DNA of 64,000 nucleotides from an uncultured Gammaproteobacteria bacterium. Lineage in GTDB: Bacteria; Patescibacteriota; Microgenomatia; Levybacterales; GWA1-39-11. Below the pieces are notes generated by a model. That model was not told where the DNA came from and did not search any database. It worked only from the letters and a program-made list of their open reading frames with translations. The position numbers were made by a program, and so were the translations under genes. The stretch lies in contig CAYRKM010000001.1 of the NCBI GenBank assembly GCA_964425075.1, positions 459,060 to 523,059 of the forward strand, written 5' to 3'. Below, piece by piece: positions 4,976-62,386 of the stretch (position 1 is the stretch's first letter; each line of letters starts with the position of its first letter).

Positions 4976-5004
4976 TTGACTTTCAAGCTCTTTTATCCTA
5001 TAAT
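4976..5004 (+). promoter_or_regulatory. sigma70-like promoter (TTGACT-17 bp-TATAAT) upstream of the high-GC ORF
   Basis: Consensus -35 TTGACT at 4976..4981, exactly 17-nt spacer, consensus -10 TATAAT at 4999..5004. A GGAGGAGG Shine-Dalgarno and GTG start follow at 5092. Confidence 0.5.
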
Positions 5005-5091
5005 ATGCTTAATTTTCTTGGTGAAGCACAGTTGATACTGTGGGGAGCCAAGGCAAGATTAGCACATTGAGTCTGCGGAGGAGGTCTAGCA

Positions 5092-5715
5092 GTGTCAGAC
5101 ATTTCTGAGTACCGAGTCGTTACTCGGGCGGACGTTGCTGCTGCGCTTCGTGAGAAGTTCGGCACCGACAAGGTGGCCTGGTCTATCGAGCCAGGTTCGG
5201 ATGAAGAGGTAAGCCCAGGGACATGGATTGAGGTATTCGTAGCTGATCCACAAGACGGAGACACACTCATTGGTCGAGGGGACAAACGTTTCTTCGATGC
5301 TCGAGTGCGCCGCCGCCCTGAAGGGTATAACCAGTTGGTTCTTTTCGAGGAGCCACAAATCCCCTTCCCTGAGGATGGGCGACCTAGGGTCGTCGGCTAC
5401 ATCCGAGTCTATGTGAATTTCCACGGTTTCGTGAGAACCCGTCAGGAAAACACACTGATCGGCCAGATGCTGATGATCCATCCGAGCTCGGTCTCAAAGG
5501 CCGAGCCCATTCAGGAAGGGGCGAACCTTATCGCCACCATCTACGTCTACACTAATCCACAACGCCTTGAGGGCGCAGTGGAAGTGGACATTCTTCAAAT
5601 GGAATTCCCAGATGAAGATCCGGACGTGATGAAGGTGAGGGAGCTCGTCGTTCTGGGCGCCGATGGGCGGTCGTTGTCCGTGGCCGCGAAACTCATGGCA
5701 TTCACCAACGCCTAG
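5092..5715 (+). CDS. hypothetical protein encoded in a ~60% GC island (GTG start)
   Basis: 207-aa ORF with GTG start and strong SD. Local GC is about 60% against about 35-40% background, and long antisense ORFs (typical of high GC) are present. Shares motif blocks with the 9168 ORF (A-x-R-x5-GY-x3-L-x-L; G-x-RVV-x2-I-x-Y-x-NF). Confidence 0.5.
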   Translation: MSDISEYRVVTRADVAAALREKFGTDKVAWSIEPGSDEEVSPGTWIEVFVADPQDGDTLIGRGDKRFFDARVRRRPEGYNQLVLFEEPQIPFPEDGRPRVVGYIRVYVNFHGFVRTRQENTLIGQMLMIHPSSVSKAEPIQEGANLIATIYVYTNPQRLEGAVEVDILQMEFPDEDPDVMKVRELVVLGADGRSLSVAAKLMAFTNA

Positions 5716-5778
5716 CCAACCCAGCAGACTTTGGGCGTCTCTGAGCTTTACCGCTCAGGGGCGCCCTCCATTCAATAC

Positions 5779-26253: not shown

Positions 26254-27405
26254 ATGAATACTATTATTTGCCGTCACTGCGGAAAAGAAATTGAAATCAC
26301 AGAAGCACTCTTGCATCAAGTTAAATCAGAAGTTGAAAAATCTGTGCTAGAAAAACACAATAAGGATTTAGAAAAGGTAAGACTTGAGGCAATAGAGAAT
26401 GCAAAAAGGGAAATTGATGAAAAACAAAGCCTAGAACTCTCCGATCTTAAGAAACAGCTTTTGGAAAAAGAAGAAAAAGTCAAAGAATTTCGAGAACAGG
26501 AACTAAAACTTCGTGAGGAAAAAAGAACAATTGAGGAAGAGAAAAAGCAGATGCAAATAGATATTCAGAGAAAATTGGACGAAGAGCGCAAGGGAATGGA
26601 AGAAAAAATTGCAAAAGAAGAGGAAGAGCGTTATCGAATGAAGGAAAAGGAGAAGGATATGATGATCGAGAATCTTCGAAAGTCATTGGATGAGGCCAAT
26701 AGGAAAGCATCGGGCGTAAGCCAGCAAGTACAGGGTGAAGTTCTGGAGATTGACCTAGAGGAGCAGCTCTTAAAGGCATTTCCTACAGACATAATTGAAC
26801 CAATTGCTAAAGGTGTAAAAGGGGGAGATATTTTGCAGACAGTTAGAAATTCTCAGGGAAAAGTTGCAGGATTGATTCTTTGGGAAACAAAGAGAGCAAA
26901 GTGGACTCCCTCCTGGATAGAAAAACTTCGAGAGGACACGAGAAAAGTCGGGGCAACCTCTTCAATCCTTGTCAGTGAAGAGCTTCCTAAAGGAATTAAG
27001 AACTTTGGTTTTTATGAAAGCGTTTTGATTACTTCCTATGTATATGTGCTTTCACTTGCAATACTTGTGAGACGTGGAATTATGCAAACAGCTGCCGCAA
27101 AATATGCAGCTGAAAATAAAGAGGAAAAACTTGAAATGGTATATCAATATCTCCAAAGCGATGCTTTTCGTCATAGAATTGAGGGATATGTTGAAAGCAT
27201 TTCAGGTATGAAGCAGGATTTGGATTATGAAAAAAGGGCAATGGAAAGGATATGGAAAAAAAGGGAAATGCAGATCTTAAAGGCTGAGAGTAGTTTGTCA
27301 AAATTGTCAGGAGAACTGGAAGGTCTTATGGGTGATTCATTTCCTACAATAAAAAATCTTTCTTTAGGTGATGGTAATGATGATGAAGAAATACCTTTGA
27401 ATTAA
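26254..27405 (+). CDS. coiled-coil protein with N-terminal CxxC zinc ribbon (DUF2130-like)
   Basis: 383 aa. N-terminal ICRHCGKEI, a long Glu/Lys-rich coiled coil, and a conserved C-terminal domain. Confidence 0.4.
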   Translation: MNTIICRHCGKEIEITEALLHQVKSEVEKSVLEKHNKDLEKVRLEAIENAKREIDEKQSLELSDLKKQLLEKEEKVKEFREQELKLREEKRTIEEEKKQMQIDIQRKLDEERKGMEEKIAKEEEERYRMKEKEKDMMIENLRKSLDEANRKASGVSQQVQGEVLEIDLEEQLLKAFPTDIIEPIAKGVKGGDILQTVRNSQGKVAGLILWETKRAKWTPSWIEKLREDTRKVGATSSILVSEELPKGIKNFGFYESVLITSYVYVLSLAILVRRGIMQTAAAKYAAENKEEKLEMVYQYLQSDAFRHRIEGYVESISGMKQDLDYEKRAMERIWKKREMQILKAESSLSKLSGELEGLMGDSFPTIKNLSLGDGNDDEEIPLN

Positions 27406-27469
27406 GGTTTTCTCTTGTTCTTTTGTCGATACAAAAGAACCAAAAAATCATGCCTATATATCCTTAGAG

Positions 27470-27630
27470 CAATCAATCCTCTCTCATTCACTGAAAGAAT
27501 CGGCAGTTCGTTTCACTCAGCCTTTACTTCTTTCCTGGCGTTCATTCGTTCGTCTCTCATGCACTGCGAATATAACGGCATGTAAATAATAAATAAGAGC
27601 TCTTTGTTTCAAATGTAAAAGAGCAACATC
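27470..27630. repeat. intergenic repeat family A, copy 2
   Basis: ctctcattcactgaaagaatcggcagttcgtttcactcagcc...ggcgttcattcgttcgtctctcatgcactgcgaatataacggcatg, homologous to the 8060..8185 copy. Confidence 0.5.
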
Positions 27631-27707
27631 AAAGATATAATTTCAACTGTAAAGATAGAACAACAAATTCCTTTGAAGAATATTTTAATTTGTGATACGG
27701 TATATAT

Positions 27708-28310
27708 ATGAAGCTTGCTGCCAAGCGCCGTCAATATTTTCGCTCTTTCGAAGCAAAATCTCTTCGTTCGCGTTCTTTTCTTACACAATTTGCTGATAAA
27801 CTCACTGAAGTTTGTGGCTCCACTACTTTTCTTATTATCCATATCCTTTGGTTTGGCACATGGATTTTTATTAATACAGGACACTTAAAGCAAATTTCTC
27901 CATTCGATCCTTTTCCATTTGGATTATTAACAATGGTTGTGTCTCTTGAGGCAATATTTTTAGCACTTTTTATTCTTGTTTCTCAGAATCGACAAGCATA
28001 CATTTCAACAATAAGAGACGAAGTTCATATGGGAGTTTCATTAATCTCGGAAGAGGAGATAACTAAAGTTTTGGAGATATTGGCAGAAGTAAGGAAAGAG
28101 GTAGGCATTAAAAAACCAGATCCCGAATTAGATAAGATGCTTGAAAGAATAGACACATCTTATTTAGAAAAAACTATAACAGAGCAACTAAGGCGCGCCA
28201 ACAAACCTCTCGTTGAGCAACTTCTAAAAGAGCTTTCTGAAACAGTTGTAGTGCATCCGGAAGTAGCAATTGGGAACATACACTCCTCAACTCCTGAATC
28301 AAATAAGTAA
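27708..28310 (+). CDS. DUF1003 family membrane protein
   Basis: Two TM helices with FDPFPFGLLTMVVSLEAIFLALFILVSQNRQ, matching the DUF1003 core. Confidence 0.6.
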   Translation: MKLAAKRRQYFRSFEAKSLRSRSFLTQFADKLTEVCGSTTFLIIHILWFGTWIFINTGHLKQISPFDPFPFGLLTMVVSLEAIFLALFILVSQNRQAYISTIRDEVHMGVSLISEEEITKVLEILAEVRKEVGIKKPDPELDKMLERIDTSYLEKTITEQLRRANKPLVEQLLKELSETVVVHPEVAIGNIHSSTPESNK

Positions 28311-28577
28311 TTCTGTTAGAATATCCCCATGGATATTTCCTGCAATTTCTCTTTTTGGGACTTATATAAAGCAGCATTCAAAAAAAATCCTTCTAAAAAA
28401 TTAAAAAAAGATTTTCAAAATCTTTCACAGATTGAAATTAATAAGCATGTTTTAATTTGGGCAAAGAAAGCCGGATGGCAAACAGAAGAAAGGATAGGAA
28501 GTGATAAGAAAATCTATCTAGCTTTTTTCCCATAACTATTTCTTGCAAATGAAATAACTGTGTGATATCTTTGGTAG

Positions 28578-28602
28578 ACCTGCTCAAGAGCAGGTTTTTT
28601 TT
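28578..28602 (+). terminator. intrinsic terminator hairpin
   Basis: gacctgctc-aag-gagcaggt followed by T8. Confidence 0.5.
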
Positions 28603-28618
28603 GTTAAAAAAAGAGATT

Positions 28619-28993
28619 ATGAAAAATTCGTTACCAGCAATTAAAAAAACACTTTTATTTTTATTACCAGCCATATTTTTCTTTGCACTAGGATGTTTTG
28701 CAATGTATATGGTACTGCGAGGAAAAGTTGCAACTCAGGGAGAGCTTACACAAAGAATTTTGACAAACTGCGTTGGTTCTCTTCAGGCGAGTGACCAGTT
28801 AAATAAAAGTTGTGTAGGTGCGTACAATACAGCGGCAACATGTGTAAGTAACTTTAATAAATGCAACATAAAAACAGAAAGTAAAAAGTTATCCGAGTAT
28901 AATTTGCAACGTCAGGAAGCTGAAAAGGCACTGCAAGGATACATTGTAGAAACAGGAAACATAATAAAAGACGCCAAGCAAATACTTCAGTAA
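28619..28993 (+). CDS. hypothetical membrane-anchored protein
   Basis: The ORF tracked from 28562 spans the upstream terminator. An internal ATG (MKNSLPAIKK...) with a TM helix is the more plausible start. Cys-rich soluble domain. Confidence 0.35.
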   Translation: MKNSLPAIKKTLLFLLPAIFFFALGCFAMYMVLRGKVATQGELTQRILTNCVGSLQASDQLNKSCVGAYNTAATCVSNFNKCNIKTESKKLSEYNLQRQEAEKALQGYIVETGNIIKDAKQILQ

Positions 28994-29194
28994 AAATTCG
29001 GATTTAATTAACCCGAATTTCCGGCTGGCTCCCTCAAGCAGCCGGAAACGGGCAAAAGTACTTCTCTTAAAATACTAAAACTAGTTTAGGACAATTAAAA
29101 ACATCTCGCTTGACACTTACGCATTTTTTTCCGGTCAAAATCCTGACATTGCATTACTTGATTTAAGGCTTACTTAGTTCTAGAATTACTTCAA

Positions 29195-30481
29195 ATGGAT
29201 AACCATATTGAGGAAAGTCTTTATCCTATTACGTTTCGCAAAAAGGATGCTGCTAATTTAGGTCAATATCTTAAAAACAGAAACAGTGTTGTATTGGTTG
29301 GGATGAAGAGAGTGGGAATTAGTAATTTCTTGCGTTTCTTTTTATATCATAAAGGAATTCAGAAAAAATACATAAACGACAATAAGAACCATCTTTTTAT
29401 ACCGGTTGATTTAAATGACCTTGTAGAGCGAGAGCTATATCCTTTTTGGGTGCTAACGTTAAAAAGAATTGAGGATGCGGTGAAGGCTTCTGAAATTCCG
29501 GCGGACGCCAAGCAATATATAGACACGTTATTTTCTGACAGTATTCAATCTAAAGATTTATTTTTAACGATTGATAGCATAAGAAAAAGCTTGCTATACC
29601 TTGTTGAAAAAAATATTATACCTACAATTTTTTTCCTACGATTTGACAGAATGAAAGACGTAGTAACCCCTGAATTTTTTTCAAACCTTCAGGGTTTAAT
29701 TGATGCATGTCACAGGAATTTATCTTTTGTTTTTACGAGTGCAAGAAGTTTGGAGAGTCTTTCTCCTGAAGTTTTTTCAAGAGCTTCCATTTCGGCATTT
29801 GCACGTACTATGTATGTGGCTCCTGGAAGTACTGATGACGCAGAGATCATTTTTGAAAACACTGCAAAGAAGAATAACGTCGCTTTCTCAAAAGAAGAAA
29901 AAAAGAAAATTCTTTCAATTGTGGATGGATATGCTCAGTATTTACAATTCGCACTATCATACCTGTATGAAAAAAAGAAAACTAAAATTGACGAAAAATT
30001 ATTTGATGAGTTGCTTAAAGACGAAAGGATTGCTCTTCAATCTGAGGAGTTATGGGAGAGTTTGTTGGACGAGGAAAAAGAAATTGTATTGAAAGCATTT
30101 GAAAATAAAAAAATTACTTTAGAGGAGAGAGATATAGCGGCATATCTTTGGAATACCGGTATGATGGAGGAAGATGGAAAATTTTTCAGTCCACTTTATG
30201 AAAAATTTATAGAGGAGACCATAAAGACAAAAAAAGTATCCCCTCCCAATATCGAGCTTTCAAAAAAAGAGCACCTACTTTTAACATTGCTTGAAGAGAA
30301 TCGTGGAGCCTTATGTGAGAGGGAGACAATCATCCAGAAAGTTTGGCCAGAGGTAGAAAGTTATGGAGTATCTGATTGGGCAGTGGATAGACTTGTTGCA
30401 AGACTTAGACAAAAGCTCAAGCAAATAGACAACAAATTTGAGATAGTAACTGTTAAGACCAGGGGTTATAAATTACTTTAA
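29195..30481 (+). CDS. transcriptional regulator: N-terminal NTPase-like domain plus C-terminal OmpR/PhoB-type winged helix
   Basis: 428 aa. Degenerate P-loop (VVLVGMKRVGIS). The C-terminal ~100 aa match the trans_reg_C wHTH (LTLLEENRGALCERETI...VDRLVARLRQKL...VKTRGYKL). Confidence 0.55.
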   Translation: MDNHIEESLYPITFRKKDAANLGQYLKNRNSVVLVGMKRVGISNFLRFFLYHKGIQKKYINDNKNHLFIPVDLNDLVERELYPFWVLTLKRIEDAVKASEIPADAKQYIDTLFSDSIQSKDLFLTIDSIRKSLLYLVEKNIIPTIFFLRFDRMKDVVTPEFFSNLQGLIDACHRNLSFVFTSARSLESLSPEVFSRASISAFARTMYVAPGSTDDAEIIFENTAKKNNVAFSKEEKKKILSIVDGYAQYLQFALSYLYEKKKTKIDEKLFDELLKDERIALQSEELWESLLDEEKEIVLKAFENKKITLEERDIAAYLWNTGMMEEDGKFFSPLYEKFIEETIKTKKVSPPNIELSKKEHLLLTLLEENRGALCERETIIQKVWPEVESYGVSDWAVDRLVARLRQKLKQIDNKFEIVTVKTRGYKLL

Positions 30482-32247
30482 TGCAACTCAAATTTCTCTA
30501 GTAATTTTTTATTTCCTTCGATCTGATAGTGCAAAAGATCTGAGTAAATTCCTTTTTCTTTTGCTAATTCATGTGGGGTTCCATAATTTGCAATTTTGCC
30601 TTCATTGACAACAATTATTTTGTCTACATTCTGAATTGTAGAAAATCTGTGGGCAATAATAATAACTAATTTATTTTTCATTAAATTCTCTAATGCCTCC
30701 TGAACTTCTTTTTCAGATTTTGCGTCAAGCGAGGAAGTTGCTTCATCAAGAATTAAGATAGGTGCGTCTTTTAAAATTGCCCGTGCAATTTGAATACGTT
30801 GTTTCTGGCCTCCTGAGAGTCTTATTCCTCTTTCTCCAATTTCGCTTTCAAGTCCTTTTGGAAGCTTTTTAACGAATTCGTATGCGTTTGCCATTTTTAG
30901 TGCTTCTATTATTTCTTTGTCTGTTGCATCAGCTTTTCCGTATACTACATTTTCCTTGATTGTTGACGAGAATAGTTCGTTTTCTTGGAATACAAGGGCA
31001 ATATTATTTCTTACAAATTGGTGTGTAATTTTTTGGTATGGAATATCTTTTAGAAATATTTCACCGCTTGTGGGTTGATATAGTTTAAGAATAAGGTTAA
31101 TTATTGTTGTTTTTCCGGCTCCACTATGCCCAACTAACGCAACCGTTTCATTTGTATTAATTGTAAAGTTGATATTCTCCAGGACTATTTCTGACTCTTC
31201 GTATTTAAATGAAACATTTTTAAATTCAATGTTTGGCTTTTCTATTTTTTCACCTTCCTCTTTTTTTGTAAAATCTTCAACAGACTCAAGATTTAAAAGC
31301 TCTAAGTATTCTTTGCTTCCAACCTCCGCTTGTTGTACCTGCGTAAGGAAGTATGACATTGCAAAAAGCGGTATTCTTGCTTGATTAAACAACTGAAGAA
31401 TCAATACCATTTCACCGATTGTCATTGTTCCAATGAAAGCGCTGTAGAAAACTAGAAAATTAATTGCAAACATAATAATTACTAAGGATAGATTTCGAGC
31501 AAAATCTATTTTGTGATATGTTGTGCTTTGCTTGGCATAAATTTTATTTATCCTTGTAAGATTTTTTGATACAGTATTAAACTCTAGAATTTCATTTGTA
31601 AAGCCCTTAACAAGTCGTATGTTGTTAATTGCTTCTCCCATTCTTCCCCTTGTGTAGTCTTCAAACATGTTTTTTTCGGCTTCGTATTTGCCCCATTTTT
31701 TCGTTGAAATATAAGAAAGAGTGATATAAATGGGGAATAAAATAAATGTAAGTAGTGCAATTGTGGGATTGAAATAAGCAAGTACCGCAACTGTAAATAT
31801 GCTTGAGACAAGCATCGGCATCATCATATTTGATAATTGATTGAGGAATTGATAAATAGTAAAAATACCCCTATTTAGTTGATTAATTATTTTTCCAGAA
31901 ATTTGTGAATCAAAATAACTTTGAGGAAGGCTTAATACTTTTTCATAAAATTTTTCTGTCAAGAATTTTCTTGCTCTCCCCGTAAAATGATCACCTAATC
32001 TATTGGAGATGGAAGTAATAGCTTGAGTGATAAGCTCTGAAGCAAAAGCTAGGACGATGAGAAAAATCAATCGTTGCATGCTTCCATTTTCTCCTTGGAT
32101 TTTTGCAACAATTTCATCAACAATAAATTTTGAAAGGATAGGTGCTCCTAGTTGGAGAGTGGAGGAAAACAAGATAAGTGTTCCTAAAATAAATAACAGT
32201 CCGTGTAGAGGTTTTGACAATTTAATAATTCTCCAAATGTTTTTCAT
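30478..32247 (-). CDS. ABC transporter, fused permease/ATP-binding exporter (MsbA-like)
   Basis: Six-TM N-terminal domain. Walker A GHSGAGKTT, signature LSGGQKQRIQIARAI, Walker B ILILDEATS. Confidence 0.85.
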   Translation of the reverse strand: MKNIWRIIKLSKPLHGLLFILGTLILFSSTLQLGAPILSKFIVDEIVAKIQGENGSMQRLIFLIVLAFASELITQAITSISNRLGDHFTGRARKFLTEKFYEKVLSLPQSYFDSQISGKIINQLNRGIFTIYQFLNQLSNMMMPMLVSSIFTVAVLAYFNPTIALLTFILFPIYITLSYISTKKWGKYEAEKNMFEDYTRGRMGEAINNIRLVKGFTNEILEFNTVSKNLTRINKIYAKQSTTYHKIDFARNLSLVIIMFAINFLVFYSAFIGTMTIGEMVLILQLFNQARIPLFAMSYFLTQVQQAEVGSKEYLELLNLESVEDFTKKEEGEKIEKPNIEFKNVSFKYEESEIVLENINFTINTNETVALVGHSGAGKTTIINLILKLYQPTSGEIFLKDIPYQKITHQFVRNNIALVFQENELFSSTIKENVVYGKADATDKEIIEALKMANAYEFVKKLPKGLESEIGERGIRLSGGQKQRIQIARAILKDAPILILDEATSSLDAKSEKEVQEALENLMKNKLVIIIAHRFSTIQNVDKIIVVNEGKIANYGTPHELAKEKGIYSDLLHYQIEGNKKLLEKFELH

Positions 32248-32323
32248 AGTTTCATCATATCATAGCTCAGGCCAATTTTAGTTCATTTAAATGCTCTTTT
32301 TGAAGTTTGGTGGTGGGAGAGTG

Positions 32324-32929
32324 TTAGTTTTTGCCGACAATAACGATGGCATCAGCTGAACCTGAAGTTAAGGTTGCTGAAGTAGTCCCAATAGTATATG
32401 ACTTTGCTAAATCCTTTTTCAGTAAATCAAGATAAGCTTTTTTGGTAGATTTTACCTGAATTACCGTATTTTCATATTCGAAGTTGTCTGCATTTCCGGT
32501 TCCAGAAACTGTATATCCAAGTCCTTCAAGTGTAGCTTTAGCTTTTGAAGCAGCTCCTGGGACTCCTCCACCATTCTGAACCATAATTGTCAGACTAGAG
32601 CGGTCAAGCCCAGATGCGCTATCAGTATTTGATGACGAGGTTTTGGTTGGAGTAACAGTTGCTTTGGTTGTTGGGGTTGGAGTCTCTTCTTCTGGTGTTG
32701 GAGTAGGTTCTTCAGTTGGTGTTATTTCTTCAGTGGGGGTTGGAGTTACATCTACTAATTCCTGTTCTCCTTTTCCTCCTGTGGCTATCGCAGCAATAAC
32801 AACTAGAAAAGCTAGAATTACAATTCCAAGAACAATCAAAATAACTTTTTTTCTATTTCCACTTGAGCGGCCAGATTCATATACGTAGGAGCGGCGAGAG
32901 CGATTGAGAATTGATTCCTGTTCTTCCAT
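32324..32929 (-). CDS. LytR_C (cell-envelope LytR C-terminal) domain protein
   Basis: N-terminal TM helix, Pro/Thr/Glu-rich linker, and a C-terminal LytR_C-like domain (TIMVQNGGGVPGAASKA...ENTVIQV). Confidence 0.55.
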   Translation of the reverse strand: MEEQESILNRSRRSYVYESGRSSGNRKKVILIVLGIVILAFLVVIAAIATGGKGEQELVDVTPTPTEEITPTEEPTPTPEEETPTPTTKATVTPTKTSSSNTDSASGLDRSSLTIMVQNGGGVPGAASKAKATLEGLGYTVSGTGNADNFEYENTVIQVKSTKKAYLDLLKKDLAKSYTIGTTSATLTSGSADAIVIVGKN

Positions 32930-33072
32930 TGTGCCTAAAGGTGTCCATATAATATCATGAATTATTATTTTTTCAACTATAGATTGTCAAATCAAAACTT
33001 TCTGATTTAAAACTTACCAAATTTAGAGTTGCTCGGAAGAGTTTTTAATAATTCCTGTGATACAATTGGCTC

Positions 33073-34140
33073 ATGAAAAAGGTTATTGGTATCCTTTTTG
33101 TGGTTTTTTTGATTGCGCTTTGTTATTTCCTCTTTTTGGATAGAAAATCCCCCTTTTCGGATAGAATTTCTACTTTAACAACTAACTCTAATAATTATAT
33201 AAATCCATCCGCAAAAAAAACCTATATCTTTATACCTTATTGGACTTTTTCAGACAGTATTGTCTCTGATGATTTTGACTCATTATTGTATTTTGGAGTG
33301 ATGGCAGACGTGAATGGTATCAATAGAGATGACCCTGGTTTTGAAAAAGTTGCTAGCTTTATGGCTAGTACAAAATCAAATAAAGAAAGGATTTTGAGTA
33401 TAAGGATGACTGATGCATCTATTAATTCTGAGATTATAAAAAATCCGTCTATTCAGGGGAAAATTATTGATGATTCAATTGAAATCGCAAAGGAATATGG
33501 ATTCGACGGAATTCTGGTAGATTTTGAAACATCTGCATTTGGTTTTGAAAATACAACAAAAAATATTAGTGATTTTTATTCTCGTTTTTCTGTCAAAGTG
33601 CACGAAAATAAATTATTGTTTTACACTACACTTTTTGGGGATTCTTATTACAGGGCTCGTGCGTATGACATTAAGCATATAGGAAAAATTTCAGATAAAG
33701 TTTTGGTCATGACGTATGATTTTCATAAGTCGCGTGGTAATCCAGGTCCCAATTTTCCCCTGAGGGGAAATGAAAGCTATGGCTATGATTTGGGGGCATT
33801 AATTAAGGATTACCAAAAAGATATAGACAACAAAAAATTGATTATAGTTTTGGGATATTTTGGATATGATTGGCAGATTGATAAAAACAAGGAAGCTATA
33901 TCTAATGGTGTACCTTTGAGTACAAATAAGATACAACAGGATTTCGTTAATTCTTGTGTATATAAAAAATGTTCATTAAAACGCAATAGTGATAAAGAAC
34001 CTTACATTGAATACATAGATACGGAAGGAAAACCTCACGTTGTATGGTTTGAGGATGAAATTTCAATAAAGGAAAAATTAGTAGAACTTTCTAAAAATGG
34101 AATTAACCAAACGGGTTTTTGGGCATACTCCTATTATTAG
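33073..34140 (+). CDS. glycoside hydrolase family 18-like protein
   Basis: Signal/TM segment, YIFIPYW start and GFDGILVDFE (D-G-x-x-x-D-x-E catalytic-type motif). Confidence 0.5.
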   Translation: MKKVIGILFVVFLIALCYFLFLDRKSPFSDRISTLTTNSNNYINPSAKKTYIFIPYWTFSDSIVSDDFDSLLYFGVMADVNGINRDDPGFEKVASFMASTKSNKERILSIRMTDASINSEIIKNPSIQGKIIDDSIEIAKEYGFDGILVDFETSAFGFENTTKNISDFYSRFSVKVHENKLLFYTTLFGDSYYRARAYDIKHIGKISDKVLVMTYDFHKSRGNPGPNFPLRGNESYGYDLGALIKDYQKDIDNKKLIIVLGYFGYDWQIDKNKEAISNGVPLSTNKIQQDFVNSCVYKKCSLKRNSDKEPYIEYIDTEGKPHVVWFEDEISIKEKLVELSKNGINQTGFWAYSYY

Positions 34141-34179
34141 TCTTTAAATTTCAAGATTAACTTTCAGAGAAGATTGTTA

Positions 34180-34215
34180 GTGTAGTGTGCCGGAGAGGGG
34201 AATTCCCCCTCCGGC
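34180..34215. terminator. near-perfect palindromic hairpin between convergent genes
   Basis: gtgccggagagggg-aatt-ccccctccggcac, lying between the stop codons of the 33073 (+) and 34246 (-) genes. Confidence 0.45.
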
Positions 34216-34245
34216 ACAAGATTGTCATCCTGGATTGATCGGTTC

Positions 34246-34965
34246 CTACCGCTTGTTGCCCGTGATTACCCTGGCTCCCGCAACTACCGTCACAGTGGCA
34301 AGAACGAAGAGTAGGGCAACCGCCATGTTCCCGCCCTGATCAGTTGTTCCGGCATTCCCCGTTTTGGGGGGAGCCGGCGTCACCGAAGCCTTCGGCTGCG
34401 GTTGGGTCGTACCCGTTGGCGACGTAATGGTTGGTGAGGGCGTTGCCCCCGTTCCAATCACTACAGTCGCTGTTGGCGTTCCCGTCCGAGTTGGCGTCGC
34501 GGTCGGAGTAGAGGTCGGAGTCGACGTTGGTGTCGAAGTCGGCGTGCTCGTTGGCGTCGCCGTGGGCGTTACAGAAACCACTACCACATCGATGTGGCTG
34601 ATTTCTTGACACTCGCTGCCCGAGAGCAGGCGCGTCACCGTAACTACTTGTGTTCCGATTCCCTCGACCTTGTAGCACCCGTTCTCATAGATGCCGTTTC
34701 CGAGCACGTTGGAATGCTGATTGCCTCCGAACATGCTCGAGCCTGACTTGATGCAGACGCCGCTCACGGTGTTACCGGTCCCGGCATCGTACGTGGCGAC
34801 CGGGTCGCCCTCAATACTCCCAACCACTCCTGTGGTTGTGCCTAGACATGTTGCGGGACTGCCTTGACCGTCGGCCAGGGCAGGCCCTGTTGCCGAGATG
34901 GTAACGTATGCTACCACAGCAGCTACGGCCATGATGGCCAATGCTATGGCAAGGAACTTGTTCAC
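34246..34965 (-). CDS. secreted Cys-containing protein with PT repeats and a C-terminal sorting-signal-like tail, in a ~60% GC island
   Basis: 239 aa with GTG start preceded by GAAGGGAG. Signal peptide, (TPTS)n linker, and a C-terminal PPKTG + hydrophobic helix + RVITGNKR. Local GC is about 60%. Confidence 0.5.
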   Translation of the reverse strand: MNKFLAIALAIMAVAAVVAYVTISATGPALADGQGSPATCLGTTTGVVGSIEGDPVATYDAGTGNTVSGVCIKSGSSMFGGNQHSNVLGNGIYENGCYKVEGIGTQVVTVTRLLSGSECQEISHIDVVVVSVTPTATPTSTPTSTPTSTPTSTPTATPTRTGTPTATVVIGTGATPSPTITSPTGTTQPQPKASVTPAPPKTGNAGTTDQGGNMAVALLFVLATVTVVAGARVITGNKR

Positions 34966-35363
34966 GCTATCTCCCTTCTCTTTGTTTTAGCGTGGTGTCT
35001 ACTTGTTGGCTTATACTTTCCTCCAGGATGTCAATGTGCGTTGATTTCGACCTCATATTCCGATTGCATCCCTGCGTTGGGTGGGTGCTCGAAATCCTCG
35101 AGGCGCTTCACGCCTAACTCTGCGGTCCGTCCCTTGAAGCCTCAAGCGGCTTCTAGATAGACCTAGAGTATGGTATGATTGGGGCAATTATATATAAAAA
35201 TAAGCTCAAAGTCAATATTGTGACGCTTAATCTTAGATCTATATAGTGTATGGATAAAAGGTAAAAATTGTCAGGCATTATATCCTGTAGTTTTTGATTG
35301 CTAGCCTCAGGGCAGTTAATTACACAGCCTCAAAACCAGTTTTTATAAAATGTGGTTTATTTT

Positions 35364-36590
35364 CTATTCTACGCGAGAGATTAGTGGAAGGGAAAATTTT
35401 ACTTCTTTTCGCTTTTTAATCACCCTTTTCTCATCCATTAGACTCGTCCCAAAGTCTATTTTTTTGGCATCAAATAGTGGATAAATTTGTTTGGCTTTTT
35501 TCTCAAGCGGTGGGTTATCAAAGAAAAGCGAAGCCTGTTTTTTTGTATTTTCGCTAAATTCATAAATAGTTGCTCCGGTTGAGCGATACAATACATTTTG
35601 CCTGTATATTTTTTCAAAACCATTTCGAAGTTCCGCGCGTATCATCATAGGATAGGAAGTTGCCTGAGTTAGTTTTATATCTACTGCATGGTGGTGAAAG
35701 TCTTGGGTTTTTAGAAAAAGAGAGATGTGTTTTGCAGCATAATTATAGTTGCGAGCTTTTAAGAAGACATCCTCCACGTGAGACAAGAGTCTTACCCACA
35801 ATATCTCTTTGTCATTTGTTGCAGGAGTTATGGTTTGGGATCTCATGATTGATTTATATGTCCTTTTGGCATCTGGAGTAACGGCATAAACAGGATATCC
35901 ATTTAGCTCCAACCAAATTTCATGGAAGGGTTTGGAGAACTTTTCTTTTATGAACTCCTCTTTTTGTTTTGCAAAATCATATGCTGTATTCATCCCTAAT
36001 TTTTTTAGAAAACTTGTGGTTTGATGTCCAATTCCCCAAACTTTTTCAATTGGAGTTTGCTTCAAGAGCGCATCAATATTTCGTCCTTCAATAACTGTAA
36101 GGCCTGATGGTTTGTGAACATTTGCCGCAATTTTTGCTAAAGACTTTGTGATACTTACGCCAATTGAAACCGTAATTCCAAGAGATGACTCTACTTCTTG
36201 TTTTATTTTTGCTGCAATTTGTGCGTAACTCATGTGAAGAGGGCGGCGCATCCCTTTAAGATCAGCAAATCCTTCATCTATTGAATAGACTTCAACAGAA
36301 GGTGAATAATGTCTCATGACAGCAAACATTTTTTCAGAAAAGAGGTGATAAAGTTTGTAATCACTAACTGCAATTGTTACTTGCGGGAATTCTTTTTTTA
36401 TCTTCCAACATTGCATTCCACGGGTAATACCCAATTTACGAGCCTCATATGAAACTGCTGTTGCAATTCCTCTCTCCCAGCCAGTAACTACAGGTTTTCC
36501 TTTAAGATGTGGATTGACTGCTTGAGTAACAGAGGCAAAAAAAGCGTCGCCGTCTAGATGAAGTATTGCTTCAGGCCATGAGGTGGTCAT
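35364..36590 (-). CDS. dinB: Y-family DNA polymerase IV
   Basis: N-terminal ILHLDGDAFFASVTQ, SIDEGFAD, and the overall UmuC/DinB layout. Lies immediately downstream of lexA. Confidence 0.85.
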   Translation of the reverse strand: MTTSWPEAILHLDGDAFFASVTQAVNPHLKGKPVVTGWERGIATAVSYEARKLGITRGMQCWKIKKEFPQVTIAVSDYKLYHLFSEKMFAVMRHYSPSVEVYSIDEGFADLKGMRRPLHMSYAQIAAKIKQEVESSLGITVSIGVSITKSLAKIAANVHKPSGLTVIEGRNIDALLKQTPIEKVWGIGHQTTSFLKKLGMNTAYDFAKQKEEFIKEKFSKPFHEIWLELNGYPVYAVTPDAKRTYKSIMRSQTITPATNDKEILWVRLLSHVEDVFLKARNYNYAAKHISLFLKTQDFHHHAVDIKLTQATSYPMMIRAELRNGFEKIYRQNVLYRSTGATIYEFSENTKKQASLFFDNPPLEKKAKQIYPLFDAKKIDFGTSLMDEKRVIKKRKEVKFSLPLISRVE

Positions 36591-36649
36591 AATAGAGTTT
36601 GAAAAACCGCCGAGTAAGATTGGAAACGGTTTTGATTATAAGTTTGAGA

Positions 36650-36810
36650 GAGGGCATAATGGTTAAAATTTCTGATTGATCTAATTTCTAATTACTAATT
36701 AAATCCCAATAATCTATTTTCCAGTTTCTAAATTAATATTATGTTTGTTGCTTATTGAATTAATTATTTTTTAGATAAATTAGGTTAATTAGAGTAATTA
36801 GGTCAATTTG
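36650..36810. repeat. cluster of CTAATT/AATTAG heptamer-like repeats (family C, copy 3)
   Basis: tctaatttctaattactaattaaatcc ... aattaggttaattagagtaattaggtcaatt. This is the reverse complement of the arrays at 45747 and 59469. Confidence 0.4.
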
Positions 36811-36817
36811 TTCGTCA

Positions 36818-37378
36818 TCAATACTTCCTGATGACGGACCGTACAATTCCAAAAATCTCAAGTTCTTCTTTAGGGTAAAAATCAGGATAAGAGGGGTTAG
36901 CAGAGCATAAAACTACTTGTCCGTCGACTTTTTCAAAAATTTTCAAAGTCCATTCTCGGTCAATTAGCGCCAAAACCACATCTCCCCTATTTGCATTCCT
37001 TGCTTTTTCAAGAATTACCATGTCATTTTTCATAATTCCTATCTCCTCTAGGGAGTCACCGGCAACTTTTAACATAAAAGAGGAGCTTGGTTTGTCAATC
37101 AAATATTCATCCAAGGAAACAAAATTTAGGTCTTCCTCAGCCCCTGTTGGGAATCCAGCCTTTACATTTCCCAACAGGGGAATTTGAAAGAAGAGTGAGG
37201 CGGGCGCTAACTTCCCACTCACTTTATCTAAATAGCCCTGCTCTACAAATTTGGTAATTATCTTATGAATCGCGTTTTTTGAGGCAAGACCAAAAAGAGT
37301 AAGCATTTCAGAATATGAAGGAAGACGTTTATTTTTTTTATAAAACTTTTGTAATTGCTGCAAGTATTCTGCTTTCAT
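36818..37378 (-). CDS. lexA: LexA repressor
   Basis: N-terminal wHTH and a C-terminal S24 peptidase domain with VAGDSL (Ser) and the Lys of the dyad (LKIFEK), plus the cleavage-site region GNVKAGFP. The tracked ORF begins at 37426; Met17 (37378) is the more likely start. Confidence 0.8.
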   Translation of the reverse strand: MKAEYLQQLQKFYKKNKRLPSYSEMLTLFGLASKNAIHKIITKFVEQGYLDKVSGKLAPASLFFQIPLLGNVKAGFPTGAEEDLNFVSLDEYLIDKPSSSFMLKVAGDSLEEIGIMKNDMVILEKARNANRGDVVLALIDREWTLKIFEKVDGQVVLCSANPSYPDFYPKEELEIFGIVRSVIRKY

Positions 37379-37434
37379 ATGTCCTTCTACTTTCGTTCCG
37401 GCGAAAGTAGCAAAGCCTCTCGTCAATTGTCCCT

Positions 37435-37590
37435 CACGTATTCACCAGTTTCACTCACTCGCTAAAACAACCCGGTTCGCAAGCTCACTTCAGTTGTTTT
37501 TCCTTCGGAACTCTCGTTCACTTACTGTTTCATACGTTCGTTACAAAATGACGAACTAAAAATGCGCTCTTGGTTTCAAATGCAAAAAAA
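37435..37590. repeat. intergenic repeat family A, copy 3 (diverged)
   Basis: gtttcactcactcgc...ctctcgttcacttactgtttcatacgttcgtt...gcgctcttggtttcaaatgcaaaaaaa parallels the 3' half of the 27470 copy (gctctttgtttcaaatgtaaaagagc). Confidence 0.4.
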
Positions 37591-37736
37591 TCTATAGTAA
37601 AAAGTCTTTGCTACGAAATTTCAAAAAGTCTTCTTTATTAAATTCCCGAAGATATCGTTCTAAAAAAGAATGAGGTTTAAATAGATGAAGTAGTTTATTA
37701 AAAAGTAAAGAGTACATACTGCCATATTTATCTTAG

Positions 37737-37752
37737 GTGAACGATTGTTCAC
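37737..37752. promoter_or_regulatory. candidate LexA (Cheo-type) box GTGAAC-N4-GTTCAC
   Basis: GAAC-N4-GTTC dyad with perfect 6-bp arms, lying upstream of lexA and separated from it by repeat A3. Confidence 0.3.
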
Positions 37753-37777
37753 TGTCAATATGACAAACTATAACAAT

Positions 37778-38779
37778 TTATTTTTGGAAATATTCCCACA
37801 CTTTTTGAGACAATTTAGCCTCAAATTCGGCAGCTTTCGATTGAGAGGAAGTTTCCGACATTAATACGATGATATAGTCACCTTTTTTGGAGAAAACTAT
37901 CCCTGCATCATGTTTTACTGCTCCTAGCTCTCCAGTCTTATGTGCAACAACCGTTCCATCAGGTAAATATTTTGGAATTCTATCATTGAGTTGCTGGCGT
38001 TTTAGCACTTCAAGCATTTCTTTAGAAGAGGTTTCGTTTACAAGTTGACCTTTATAAAGCAATTCGTAGTAGTCAGCAATATCTTTTGCAGTCGTACGCG
38101 GAGGACTTCCAGTATTTGAAGCAGTGAGATGATTATCAAGTAAGAATTTCTTAACGTTAGAATTTTTTACGGTGTAGGTAAGAAGGAGCGCTGAATAATT
38201 ATGAGAAATTGTAATCATTCGCTCTAGAGCTTCTCGTACCGTTGTATCAATTGAACCTTCTGTTTCTTCTGCGTCTTCTCCGAGGTCAAATATTCTATTT
38301 AATTCTTCAATACTCATCGAAATATTTTTATCAAGACTTAATTTTCCGTCCTCAATTTGCTGATACACTGTTCCCATGGTCCAGAGTTTATATAAGGAAG
38401 CAGAGTCAAATTTTCTTGTTTCATTCAAGCTATAATCTTCACCCGTTTTTAAATTCTTAATAACCACTGCATATGTACCTTTCTCATTTTGTAAAGAGTC
38501 TTTTATTATCTTCTCAAGCTCTCTTGAGCGAGTAATATTTTTATAAGTTTCAATGGACTTTTCAATTGGTGAGGCAAGCGGGGTTAAAATTGTTGATTCT
38601 ATTGTTCCCTCTTCAGATCCCTGTACTCTTATGAAGGCTAAAAGCATAAGAATGAAAGTAAAAAGAGAAAACAGAAGCAGTTTGGACAATGCGGATAAGC
38701 TCGAGACTAGAATATGTTGATATATAAGCACTATTGCAAAAGTGATAAATCCTACAAGAGGAAGAATGAGCCAACCCAT
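37778..38779 (-). CDS. class A beta-lactamase-like serine hydrolase / penicillin-binding protein
   Basis: TM anchor, S-x-x-K (SASLYK), an SDN-like motif and KTG (AHKTGELG). Confidence 0.55.
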   Translation of the reverse strand: MGWLILPLVGFITFAIVLIYQHILVSSLSALSKLLLFSLFTFILMLLAFIRVQGSEEGTIESTILTPLASPIEKSIETYKNITRSRELEKIIKDSLQNEKGTYAVVIKNLKTGEDYSLNETRKFDSASLYKLWTMGTVYQQIEDGKLSLDKNISMSIEELNRIFDLGEDAEETEGSIDTTVREALERMITISHNYSALLLTYTVKNSNVKKFLLDNHLTASNTGSPPRTTAKDIADYYELLYKGQLVNETSSKEMLEVLKRQQLNDRIPKYLPDGTVVAHKTGELGAVKHDAGIVFSKKGDYIIVLMSETSSQSKAAEFEAKLSQKVWEYFQK

Positions 38780-38828
38780 AAAGCAAATTATATCAGGAGA
38801 TTTAGGAAAAACTTTAAATTCGGTTTCC

Positions 38829-39167
38829 TTACAATCCTAATCCTGCTCCTCCTAATTGAGTGTTTAAAGTACTGGTAATGCTGTTATAAGTTTGTGCCAT
38901 TAACCACACCGATATAATAATTGAAAAAAGAGTCAGTAAAATTGCTACAACGCCTATTATTTGTGCTTTGGAGTCTTTTTGCCTGAAATATTTTATTCCC
39001 GGCCAGAGGCCAAGCGGAGGAAGAAAAAAACTTAAAAGGTAAATGCCCATTTGTTTGCCAATCGTCGTTGAGACGGGTGGTTCTTTTATTTTTTGTCCAC
39101 AATTTGGACAAAAATAATTTGCAGGTGAAAGTTGGAATTTGCATTTGGGGCATAGCTCGTGGTCCAT
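38829..39167 (-). CDS. small zinc-ribbon membrane protein
   Basis: CPKC...CPNCG ribbon followed by two TM helices. Confidence 0.35.
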   Translation of the reverse strand: MDHELCPKCKFQLSPANYFCPNCGQKIKEPPVSTTIGKQMGIYLLSFFLPPLGLWPGIKYFRQKDSKAQIIGVVAILLTLFSIIISVWLMAQTYNSITSTLNTQLGGAGLGL

Positions 39168-39331
39168 ATGAGTAGCATCTCACATGAGTTAATAAGCTTC
39201 AATGGGAGAATGCTGGCAATAATCTTTACTTGCAAAATACCTCTTGACGTACAAAAAAACATGTAGTATTATTCTTTTTACACCTTAACTGAGGTGTTTC
39301 TTTTTGGCGAAAGCCACGATATAATACAAAT

Positions 39332-40516
39332 ATGGCAACAGGAAAATTTGATAGAACAAAACCACACGTTAATATTGGAACCATTGGTCACGTTGATCAT
39401 GGTAAAACCACTACAACTGCAGCTATTACTACAGTATTGGCTAAAAAGGGATTTGCAGAAGCTCGAAAATACGAGGATATTGATAATGCTCCAGAAGAAA
39501 GAGAAAGAGGAGTTACCATCAACATTTCCCACCAAGAATACGAAACAGAAAAAAGACATTACGCACACATTGACGCTCCAGGACACGCTGATTACATTAA
39601 AAACATGATCACTGGTGCCGCTCAAATGGATGGTGCAATTTTAGTTGTATCTGCTCCTGACGGTCCTATGCCTCAAACTCGAGAACACATTCTTCTTGCT
39701 CGCCAAGTTGGAGTACCTTCAATCGTAGTATTCATGAACAAAATTGACATGGTTCAAGATCCTGAGCTTATTGAACTTGTTGAAATGGAAGTACGAGAAC
39801 TTTTGAACAAATACCAATATCCAGGAGACGAAACCCCTATTATTAAAGGTTCTGCTCTTAAGGCTCTTGAGGGAGACGCAGAGGCTGAAAAAGCTATTCT
39901 TGATCTTATGGAAGCAGTTGACAGCTACATTCCAACCCCAGAAAGACCAGTTGATAAACCTTTCCTTATGCCAGTTGAGGATGTTTTCTCAATTAAAGGT
40001 CGAGGAACAGTGGTAACTGGAAGAATAGAAAGAGGAATGGTAAAAATTAACGAAGAGCTTGAAATTGTTGGTATAAAGCCAACCACAAAAACAATTGTTA
40101 CTGGAATTGAAATGTTCCGAAAACAGCTCGATGAGGGTCAAGCAGGAGATAATGCAGGACTTCTTCTAAGAGGAATTGAAAAGAAAGATGTAGAGCGCGG
40201 ACAAGTTCTTGCAAAACCTGGAAGTATTACTCCTCACACTGATTTTGAGGCTGAAGTTTATATTCTTACCAAAGAAGAGGGTGGACGTCACACTCCTTTC
40301 TTCTCAGGATACCGACCACAATTTTACATCAGAACAACTGACGTAACTGGTGAAATCAAACTCCAAGAGGGTGTTGAGATGGTTATGCCAGGAGATAACG
40401 CAAAAATGAATGTTTCATTAATTGTTCCAGTCGCTATGGAAGAAGGAATGAGATTTGCTATCCGAGAAGGTGGAAGAACCGTCGGAGCAGGAGTTGTAAC
40501 CAAGATTACTAAGTAA
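39332..40516 (+). CDS. tuf: translation elongation factor Tu
   Basis: [18 protein letters not shown] and SALKALEG motifs. Full 394-aa EF-Tu. Confidence 0.96.
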
Positions 40517-62201: not shown

Positions 62202-62316
62202 GATTAGCGTTTGGTTAATAGCATTTAGCGTTTAGTTACATAAAAAAACGCTACTAATTAAAACTCATTGTAGCAATTTTTTAATTCTTTGCAAGTGGTA
62301 AAAGCAAGAGATATGT

Positions 62317-62386
62317 CGGGGAGAGGAGAATTGAACTCCTGCCGTACGACCCCCAGCCGTACATTCTACCGTTAAACTACTCCCCG
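62317..62386 (-). tRNA. tRNA-Pro (anticodon GGG)
   Basis: Minus-strand sequence CGGGGAG-TA-GTTT-AACGGTA-GAAT-G-TACGG-CTGGGGG-TCGTA-CGGC-AGGAG-TTCAATT-CTCCT-CTCCCCG folds as a cloverleaf. A perfect 7-bp acceptor stem has C1:G72 (a tRNA-Pro hallmark) and discriminator A. T-loop is TTCAATT, anticodon loop C-U-GGG-G-G. CCA is not encoded. Confidence 0.7.

Follow-up and report, generated by a model that had tools for sequence, protein, structure and literature searches.

What is a gene rich in guanine and cytosine (GC) doing between two housekeeping genes of an AT-rich genome, and from where did it come? The gene is in a 64,000-nucleotide (nt) stretch of contig CAYRKM010000001.1, hereafter the window, which has an overall GC content of 36.8%. 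It is the one real open reading frame (ORF) of a GC-rich segment, island 2 (34186–35161, about 58% GC); another such segment, island 1, is present at 5040–5760. The host is predicted to be a Levybacteria-like Microgenomates bacterium within the Candidate Phyla Radiation (CPR) with an AT-rich and tiny genome, because the best named relatives of DinB, encoded beside island 2, are from Candidatus Levybacteria (73%), followed by those from Shapirobacteria and Roizmanbacteria. A life attached to other cells is assumed for bacteria of the CPR, and what little evidence there is on their partners includes the proteins at their surface and the origins of the genes they have imported. We conclude that island 2 is probably a horizontally acquired single-gene insert that encodes a Sec-secreted surface protein with an LPXTG-type sorting signal, that its donor was GC-rich and related to Dehalococcoidia, and that a sortase would link the protein to the wall. 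Island 2 is a clean case in that a surface-display gene comes with an empty-site control and has its nearest relatives in Dehalococcoidia.

The gene of island 2 is compositionally foreign to its surroundings. The original prediction described a minus-strand island of ~1 kb and ~60% GC, and formal tests of composition bear this out. Along 100-bp windows, GC content changes from 0.28–0.37 to 0.57–0.67 across ~34186–35161 and is ~0.30 on leaving the island. The gene itself has a GC content of 0.597 and a third-codon-position GC content (GC3) of 0.637, versus 0.261 ± 0.043 for the 76 other ORFs of the window (z = 8.8), and the tetranucleotide distance of island 2 is the largest in the window. Since GC3 is equally high (0.61–0.65) in the signal/domain, linker, and tail parts of the gene taken separately, Pro/Thr codons alone are not the cause.

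Comparisons to relatives indicate that the island was added to an otherwise conserved locus. Genes are ordered as EF-Tu, beta-lactamase-like, S24 peptidase, DinB, island 2, GH18, LytR_C, and ABC transporter, and in relatives the same order is found around dinB and GH18, with island 2 missing. The site between these two convergent genes is empty in eight relative loci: the gap is 112 bp in two (L028 and L029; DinB 76% identical), and the stop codons abut, with 0 bp between them, in the other six (L088–L093; DinB 73–74% identical). Because the gap is only 0–112 bp in relatives, all 1.22 kb that separate the stop codons of dinB and GH18 in the window are inserted sequence, and we interpret island 2 as an insertion relative to the eight syntenic loci.

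Sharp boundaries of this kind could also be produced by an error in assembly or binning, in which a GC-rich fragment of another organism was spliced into the metagenome-assembled genome (MAG). Both run-level contigs that match the region end inside island 2, and the exact island-2 protein is missing from the protein collection even though both neighbors are present. Exact look-ups with five alternative start codons were negative and the ATG-start variant is also absent, results that are weak for GTG and TTG starts, for which references may begin with V or L. Nevertheless, the two contigs come from assemblies of separate runs (L094 from SRR14271365, matching 32148–34879; L095 from SRR14271372, matching 32034–34514), match the window at 100%, and both cross the 3′ junction of island 2. 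Likewise, another contig (L004) spans all of island 1 with both junctions, and relatives L026 and L027 have analogous junctions. The insert is located exactly within the intergenic gap, with a host-type promoter ahead of a complete gene that has its own Shine–Dalgarno sequence and hairpin. Chimerism at the boundaries, raised in the original prediction as a concern, is thus unlikely, and a spliced fragment is very improbable as an explanation of the island. The 5′ junction at 35162 is the weaker side, as it is crossed by no independent assembly.

The encoded protein has all of the parts assigned to it in the original prediction (table 1). A Shine–Dalgarno sequence, GAAGGGAG, is located at 34978–34971 and the GTG start is 6 nt downstream. 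The translation comprises a signal peptide, a four-Cys domain of 100 amino acids (aa), a (TPTS)n linker, and a PPKTG motif followed by a hydrophobic segment and a basic tail. Residues 1–31, with a basic n-region, a hydrophobic helix, and PALA/DG, read as a Sec signal peptide, the position of which is supported by a mature N-terminus, A-D-G-x-G-S, that is conserved across the family of four-Cys proteins described below. The four cysteines are at positions 40, 71, 97, and 119. AlphaFold confidently predicts a beta-sandwich for residues 40–131 (predicted local distance difference test, pLDDT, >90), plus an N-terminal helix and a C-terminal one at residues 214–236. The hydrophobic segment, MAVALLFVLATVTVVAGA, has a mean hydropathy of 2.74, and the island-2 ORF is alone among the ORFs of the window in combining motif, hydrophobic segment, and basic tail. 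The protein matches nothing in Pfam, NCBIfam, or PHROGs. A Foldseek search of the PDB with the domain model yielded nothing at E < 0.2, and matches in a profile search of the PDB were confined to the low-complexity linker.

Table 1. Positions of features in and around island 2, in coordinates of the window.
Feature	Position	Strand	Description
AT-rich spacer, dinB stop to cargo junction	35170–35363	−	31% GC over 35166–35363; palindrome 35333–35358 near dinB
Sigma-70-type promoter, TTGACT-N17-TATAAT	35187–35215	−	11 of 12 consensus positions; directed into island gene
Junction motif, ACTCTAGG	35162–35169	−	Last bases in common with L027 (ACTCTAGG) and L026 (ACTCTGGG); cargo differs beyond
5′ leader, cargo-specific	34966–35161	−	196 nt, 51% GC; holds Shine–Dalgarno GAAGGGAG
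Coding sequence	34246–34965	−	239 aa, GTG start; predicted secreted surface protein with LPXTG-like C-terminal signal
Signal peptide, residues 1–31	34873–34965	−	MNK, hydrophobic helix, PALA/DG; AlphaFold helix at residues 3–24
Four-Cys domain, residues 32–131	34573–34872	−	Alignments A1 and A2; predicted beta-sandwich, pLDDT >90
Pro/Thr/Ser-rich (TPTS)n-type linker, residues 132–198	34372–34572	−	Low pLDDT, ~41–72 per 10-residue block
C-terminal sorting-type signal	34249–34371	−	PPKTG at 199–203, 10-aa spacer, 18-aa hydrophobic helix at 214–231, tail RVITGNKR
Near-perfect palindrome, GTGCCGGAG(A)GGGGAATTCCCCCTCCGGCAC	34187–34217		Center GAATTC; 28 nt past stop codon, between convergent island gene and GH18
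Short AT-rich spacer, right-hand insertion edge	34141–34186		27% GC, hairpin to GH18 stop; junction 100% in L094 and L095

The four-Cys domain defines a widespread family that has no annotation in curated libraries. We identified 71 relatives of the island-2 protein in the protein collection and 77 loci in scans of genomes and metagenomes (the locus scan was run with alignment A2, as A1 is too diverse). E-values range from 1.9e-51 to 1e-20 against 22 family members. The conserved core is GVCIKSG ... GCY.V.G.GT..VTVTR ... CQ.ISHIDV, with four cysteines; of the individual residues, C40 and C97 never vary and C119, S123, H124, and I125 rarely do. Almost all members are built alike: behind the signal peptide, the domain forms the mature N-terminus, next comes a stalk that is either structured or of low complexity, and the protein closes with a TG-terminated pentapeptide, a hydrophobic helix, and a basic end. 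Most tails have [LF]PxTG before the transmembrane helix and basic end, and the motifs include LPKTG (P0002), LPATG, LPDTG, LPSTG, FPDTG, LAGTG, MPVTG, and PPSTG (L007, L008, and P0035).

Several members are directly linked to sortases. A sortase gene is adjacent to homologs of the Saccharimonadales type (L001–L003, L009–L011, L018, L021, L025, and L030), and in P0040 (404 aa, encoded on a 262-kb contig) a single polypeptide combines the four-Cys domain with a PT linker and, after it, a sortase domain (PF04203). In long family members the stalk contains SpaA/SdrD-B domains, as is typical of adhesins anchored by sortases. Because of the adjacent sortases, the sortase fusion, and the stalk domains, we interpret the four-Cys domain as a tip module on a wall-anchored stalk, and the exposed domain probably binds another cell or polymer. 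A sortase-linked tip domain of this kind deserves a family name and a structure.

The island gene is most similar to copies in GC-rich genomes. In every locus examined elsewhere, the GC content of the family gene tracks that of its own flanks, with domain GC3 of 0.34–0.39 in contigs of 42–47% GC and 0.85 in contigs of 68% GC; the window copy alone is out of equilibrium. The closest copies among species-representative genomes are in two Dehalococcoidia MAGs (L007 and L008), in loci of 68% GC. They are 72% and 71% identical to the window copy over residues 1–129, and 81% and 78% identical over the domain. Their signal peptides resemble that of the window copy, their TPT linkers are long, and their tails take the form ...PRPPSTGNGG...RRRRS; the variant with P in place of L in the motif is common to them (PPSTG) and the window copy (APPKTGNAG). 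In a neighbor-joining tree, the window copy groups with the two Dehalococcoidia sequences in 72 of 100 bootstraps. Judging from these comparisons, the gene was most likely imported from a GC-rich, Dehalococcoidia-like (Chloroflexota) donor that is itself unsampled. Competence genes, which are enriched in CPR (PMC6744442), are a plausible route of uptake.

Some observations weigh against this choice of donor. In 23 of 100 bootstraps the window copy is placed with a clade on contigs of 46–48% GC (47–49% in the flanks), members of which are nearly as close (75–79% domain identity); one complete locus of that clade has an adjacent sortase and another has a sortase fragment at the end of its contig. 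The tree on which the assignment rests was inferred by neighbor joining from 100 columns. Moreover, the GC3 of 0.64 is well under the 0.85 of the Dehalococcoidia copies, so either the true donor is unsampled or the gene has partly ameliorated. Donor-derived flanking DNA was not recognized: the leader has no DNA homology to regions upstream of the L007 and L008 genes or of other homologs. It is because of the difference in GC3 and the lack of recognizable donor flanks that we regard the donor as unsampled.

The family also occurs natively in Microgenomates (e.g., Curtissbacteria L014 and OLB22 L022), raising the alternative that the gene is ancestral and was lost from relatives. But native copies have GC contents like those of their hosts and, in the segment that aligns best, are only 46–49% identical to the window copy, the dinB and GH18 stop codons abut in L088–L093, and the GC3 of the island gene is 8.8 standard deviations off the host mean. 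An ancestral origin is thus highly improbable.

Island 2 resembles the GC and codon-usage islets classically attributed to horizontal gene transfer, which ameliorate over time: it deviates sharply in GC and GC3, is missing at the syntenic site of relatives, and has its highest-identity homologs in a distant phylum, with which it groups in 72 of 100 bootstraps. Unlike such islets, it consists of one gene and is immediately preceded by a perfect promoter of the host type, and its sister, island 1, has not ameliorated across a deep divergence. It also lacks the usual tRNA, integrase, insertion sequence, and direct repeats at its ends. A Pfam scan of the genes on both sides (26254–40516) revealed no recombinase, transposase, or integrase. 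The sole tRNA of the window is at 62315–62386, so there is no tRNA target beside island 2, and neither flanking direct repeats nor an attC-like site with R″/R′ cores were found around it.

Whether the C-terminal signal is used by a sortase is less certain. The original prediction of an LPXTG-type signal holds for the tripartite tail and is favored by the linkage of the family to sortases, but the pentapeptide is noncanonical and matches no model. As in the LPXTG-anchored proteins of monoderms (adhesins of the MSCRAMM and SpaA types), the island-2 protein has a signal peptide, a distal binding-type domain, and a Pro/Thr-rich linker that could span the wall, and ends with a TG-terminated pentapeptide, a hydrophobic helix, and a basic tail. 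Four-Cys family members are found beside sortase genes and long ones have SpaA/SdrD-B stalks, as expected of such proteins. Unlike them, it has PPKTG as its pentapeptide and no match to TIGR01167, its displayed domain has no counterpart in Pfam, NCBIfam, or the PDB, and it is from a CPR host with no sortase seen within the window.

Several observations count against wall anchoring. PPKTG has P in place of L at the first position and is neither LPXTG nor a known class variant such as LAXTG, whereas family members of Microgenomates use [LMF][PA]xTG. The host sortase may therefore not accept PPKTG. Neither the protein nor its tail matches any curated sorting-signal model, TIGR01167 included, at E-values up to 10; in the family, one tail (L036, 16.0 bits) reaches the TIGR01167 cut-off of 15.9. 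The NCBIfam model NF058571 (GVDTG-CTERM) is matched below its threshold of 29 bits by GC-rich, Chloroflexota-like family members (L052, 20 bits; P0035, 14.7 bits), but not by the tail of the window protein at E-values up to 10. Literature searches on the GVDTG domain, and on LPXTG variants or GC-rich islands in CPR, uncovered nothing relevant. The original prediction also pointed to sortase genes as a test, and neither tblastn nor a sortase hidden Markov model turned one up in the 64 kb of the window, out of a contig of 835 kb.

It is therefore possible, though on balance doubtful, that the tail is no sortase substrate in this host, and that PPKTG is a relic of the donor in a protein that stays tethered to the membrane by its C-terminal transmembrane helix or is released. 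The departure of PPKTG from the motifs of Microgenomates members, the tail without a match to a model, and the lack of a sortase within the window are as this alternative predicts, as is a gene that came without a partner sortase, unlike the copies of the Saccharimonadales type. Conversely, no part of the tripartite signal is missing (pentapeptide, 18-aa helix, and basic tail are all in place), PPxTG is kept in three Dehalococcoidia members, which argues that the motif is functional, and sortases are near-ubiquitous in Microgenomates (PMC6744442). We suggest that anchoring by a sortase is the better account of the tail.

The flanks of island 2 are unusual in ways that have parallels at island 1. 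A comparison of the two, as proposed in the original prediction, revealed that the only two perfect TTGAC-N17-TATAAT promoters of the window precede the islands. Even with a relaxed spacing, TTGAC-N16-18-TATAAT is present at two sites in the window, one upstream of each island and both pointing inward, and TTGACTTT-N14-16-TATAAT occurs twice in 64 kb where 0.01 occurrences are expected. The promoter words TTGACTTT and CTTTGAGCTT are the only ones shared between the islands in a BLAST comparison. Levybacteria-like DNA totaling ~160 kb contains eight TTGAC-N16-18-TAnAAT sites, of which seven are just upstream of GC-rich segments, and there is no such site in eight loci that lack islands. Near-perfect promoters (TTGACTT...TAnAAT) are located at 4976–5004 (+) and 35187–35215 (−) of the window and at 2846 in L005, 1241 in L006, 1673 and 3144 in L026, and 6716 in L027.

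The ends of the putative transcript are predicted to be structured. The ~195-nt, moderately GC-rich leader of the original prediction extends from 35161 to 34966, has a hairpin near its 5′ end (GAAGCC-GCUUGA-GGCUUC, 35153–35136), and, in a fold of 34963–35180, has a minimum free energy (MFE) of −64.6 kcal/mol (z = −3.3). Searches of Rfam, whether with gathering or with E-value thresholds, identified no family in the leader or in the rest of the island, and a search for hammerhead cores identified nothing near the islands in the window. Past the stop codon, the near-perfect palindrome centered on GAATTC, also correctly described before, is predicted to form a hairpin with a 14-bp stem and one bulge (folding free energy of −33.3 kcal/mol, z = −4.3). 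Because ACACUACACUAAC rather than a U-tract follows, the hairpin does not qualify as a textbook intrinsic terminator, and a scan for terminator consensus made no call. The hairpin is a probable transcript end or stabilizer. In the mRNA, the ORF is also bracketed by a 14-nt inverted repeat, ATTGACATCCUGGA and UCCAGGAUGACAAU (35022–35035 in the leader and 34221–34234 just past the stop; 13 of 14 positions complementary), for which ~0.2 occurrences are expected, which is within chance. A layout is shared among the GC-rich units: a GC-rich leader that opens with a hairpin, a strong Shine–Dalgarno sequence, one gene, and a GC-rich hairpin.

Expression and display can be envisioned as follows. Transcription would start at the resident consensus promoter (35215–35187), the structured, GC-rich leader and strong Shine–Dalgarno sequence would drive translation from GTG, and the GC-rich hairpin would close or stabilize the transcript. 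The protein would then be exported by Sec and cleaved after ALA. Two disulfides probably stabilize the domain, and CPR encode MdbA-like oxidoreductases, which, like competence genes, are enriched in them (PMC6744442). The C-terminal helix and basic tail would retain the protein in the membrane until a host sortase, given how common these are in Microgenomates, cuts between T and G of PPKTG and links it to the wall.

Two leads emerge from these comparisons: perfect promoters occur together with fixed junctions and with alternative GC-rich cargo in sister genomes, and island 1 has not ameliorated. Either could reveal a mechanism of gene capture or a force that maintains composition. The first is most evident in L027 and L026, the DinB proteins of which are 87–88% identical to that of the window. 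The spacer that follows dinB, missing in more distant relatives, is homologous among the three, as is the promoter, and in each case the homology breaks off at one and the same nucleotide, following ACTCT(A/G)GG. Relative to L027, the spacer is 65% identical over about 240 bp and the homology ends exactly at ACTCTAGG. Beyond this junction are three cargoes: the four-Cys protein in the window, an unrelated secreted protein with a PS linker in L027, and a GC-rich operon of GtrA, UbiA, and GT2 glycosyltransferase genes in L026. The L027 cargo was considered as a four-Cys family member and rejected, as only the word CVKAG matches (4.7 bits). The L026 locus has a second GC-rich unit (ORFs of 213 and 71 aa) in the spacer after dinB, flanked by a ~20-bp direct repeat, CTGAGGCTnnCAnAGCAA, at ~1565–1590 and ~3040–3065, a repeat that resembles a target duplication or att-like site. 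A 1.45-kb GC-rich unit of L026 ends, at its 3′ side (2893–2962), in a textbook hammerhead core, CUGAUGAG-UCC-GAAA-GGA-CGAAA, in which stem I is a 7-bp hairpin and stem III is open; it scores 17.5 bits against Rfam Hammerhead_3 (gathering threshold 48.5) and its MFE fold is a three-way junction.

Such a pattern could arise if the dinB–GH18 interval, and perhaps also the site upstream of fusA, were a promoter-adjacent capture site that takes promoterless GC-rich cargo by site-specific recombination, integron-like in its logic. We consider this unlikely. In its favor, three lineages with a common spacer and promoter have three unrelated cargoes joined at the same nucleotide, the second unit in L026 is flanked by a direct repeat, consensus promoters are directly upstream of GC-rich segments in seven of eight cases and in none of the eight island-less loci, and a GC-rich hairpin ends each unit. 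But the scanned genes include no recombinase, transposase, or integrase, the window island has neither attC-type cores nor flanking direct repeats, the junction motif is specific to this locus and missing at island 1, and the sample is three lineages only. Homologous recombination in conserved flanks coupled to selection for promoter proximity could mimic the pattern. This offers an alternative to capture in which cargo is replaced via the flanks and selection favors a strong promoter before poorly expressed foreign genes.

Compared to integron cassettes, with their attC hairpins and an attI site behind the Pc promoter, island 2 is similar in being a single ORF with no recognizable promoter of its own, downstream of a strong resident one, in having an imperfect palindrome just past the ORF, and in that close relatives have other cargo joined at this junction. 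It differs in that no IntI-type integrase was found among the scanned genes, its hairpin is 31 nt with one bulged base and without R″/R′ cores (RYYYAAC and GTTRRRY), there is no cassette array in the window, and its cargo has a 196-nt leader. The broader proposal is also speculative and equally unlikely: that capture sites in Levybacteria-like CPR, in which a near-perfect sigma-70 promoter is combined with a fixed junction and a stabilizing 5′ hairpin, swap in unrelated GC-rich genes that do not ameliorate. Among the GC-rich cargo seen are surface proteins and a Nudix-fold protein, as well as GAPDH and an operon for envelope glycosylation. If true, it would be a new cassette system that is recombinase-independent or has a recombinase still unrecognized, and if its cargo came repeatedly from GC-rich partners such as Dehalococcoidia, islands would record whom the episymbionts live on.

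Island 1 bears on the second lead. It had been referred to as a 5-kb island, but ~5 kb is its coordinate; the island measures 0.75 kb, is located between guaA and fusA, and has a single gene, an ORF at 5092–5715 (+) that encodes 207 aa and has a GC3 of 0.62 (z = 8.4). Its product is a cytoplasmic protein without a hit in Pfam, NCBIfam, or PHROGs. The predicted fold is similar to that of Nudix hydrolases (Foldseek E of about 3e-5; template modeling score of about 0.45), and no Nudix box is visible in the sequence. Closer homologs, three besides its own copy, are present only in this CPR lineage; about 40 relatives are remote and rich in glycine, alanine, arginine, and proline (GARP). In L005 and L006, orthologs with 76% and 59% identity, respectively, occupy this site upstream of fusA (the EF-G next to the L006 copy is 75% identical) and have GC3 of 0.62–0.73 beside host genes of 0.26–0.34. 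Third positions at conserved residues are saturated (0.39–0.49 identity). The promoter type is also preserved in relatives. Because orthologs at the same site in diverged relatives are still GC-rich, island 1 is not a recent import. Thus, of the original prediction that single genes were acquired like cassettes from a high-GC source, the part on island 2 is upheld by the insertion, foreign composition, and grouping with Dehalococcoidia, and the part on island 1 is not; recent import of this type fits island 2 and not island 1.

High GC content might then be no mark of recent import at all, but be maintained by selection on mRNA, GC-biased repair at a recombination hot spot, or repeated re-import. 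We think this rather unlikely for the islands in general, albeit less so than capture. Persistence of GC3 at 0.62–0.73 in orthologs with 76% and 59% aa identity and saturated third positions is what such maintenance predicts, as are the preserved promoter type, a terminator hairpin kept by compensatory changes, the restriction of closer homologs to this lineage, and the GC-rich GAPDH gene in L006 and operon in L026. On the other hand, island 2 has an empty site in eight relative loci and its nearest homologs are in genomes of 68% GC; import therefore explains it without extra assumptions. The relatives compared include no ortholog of island 2 that could show persistence, and the GARP-rich remote relatives of island 1 fit an old import from a GC-richer source. 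We therefore retain import as the explanation of island 2.

Structures at both ends of island 1 covary between the window and L005. The hairpin at the start of the leader is CACAGU-UGAU-ACUGUG in the window (5025–5050) and CAAGAG-CUUG-CUCUUG in L005 (~2885–2915), and the terminator hairpin is GGGCGUCUCUGAGC... in the former and GGGGUGUCUCCGAGC... in the latter. These compensatory changes suggest selection on the structure of mRNA ends. In L006, an AT-rich promoter spacer lies between the ortholog of island 1 and a GAPDH gene (113–1138) that, with a GC3 of 0.72 relative to ~0.3 for other genes, forms another single-gene GC-rich island. Lastly, the genes directly upstream of the dinB–GH18 hot spot (35364–37426) encode an S24 peptidase similar to LexA and UmuD and DinB, a module of the SOS-mutagenesis type, and the pair is kept in all relatives examined.

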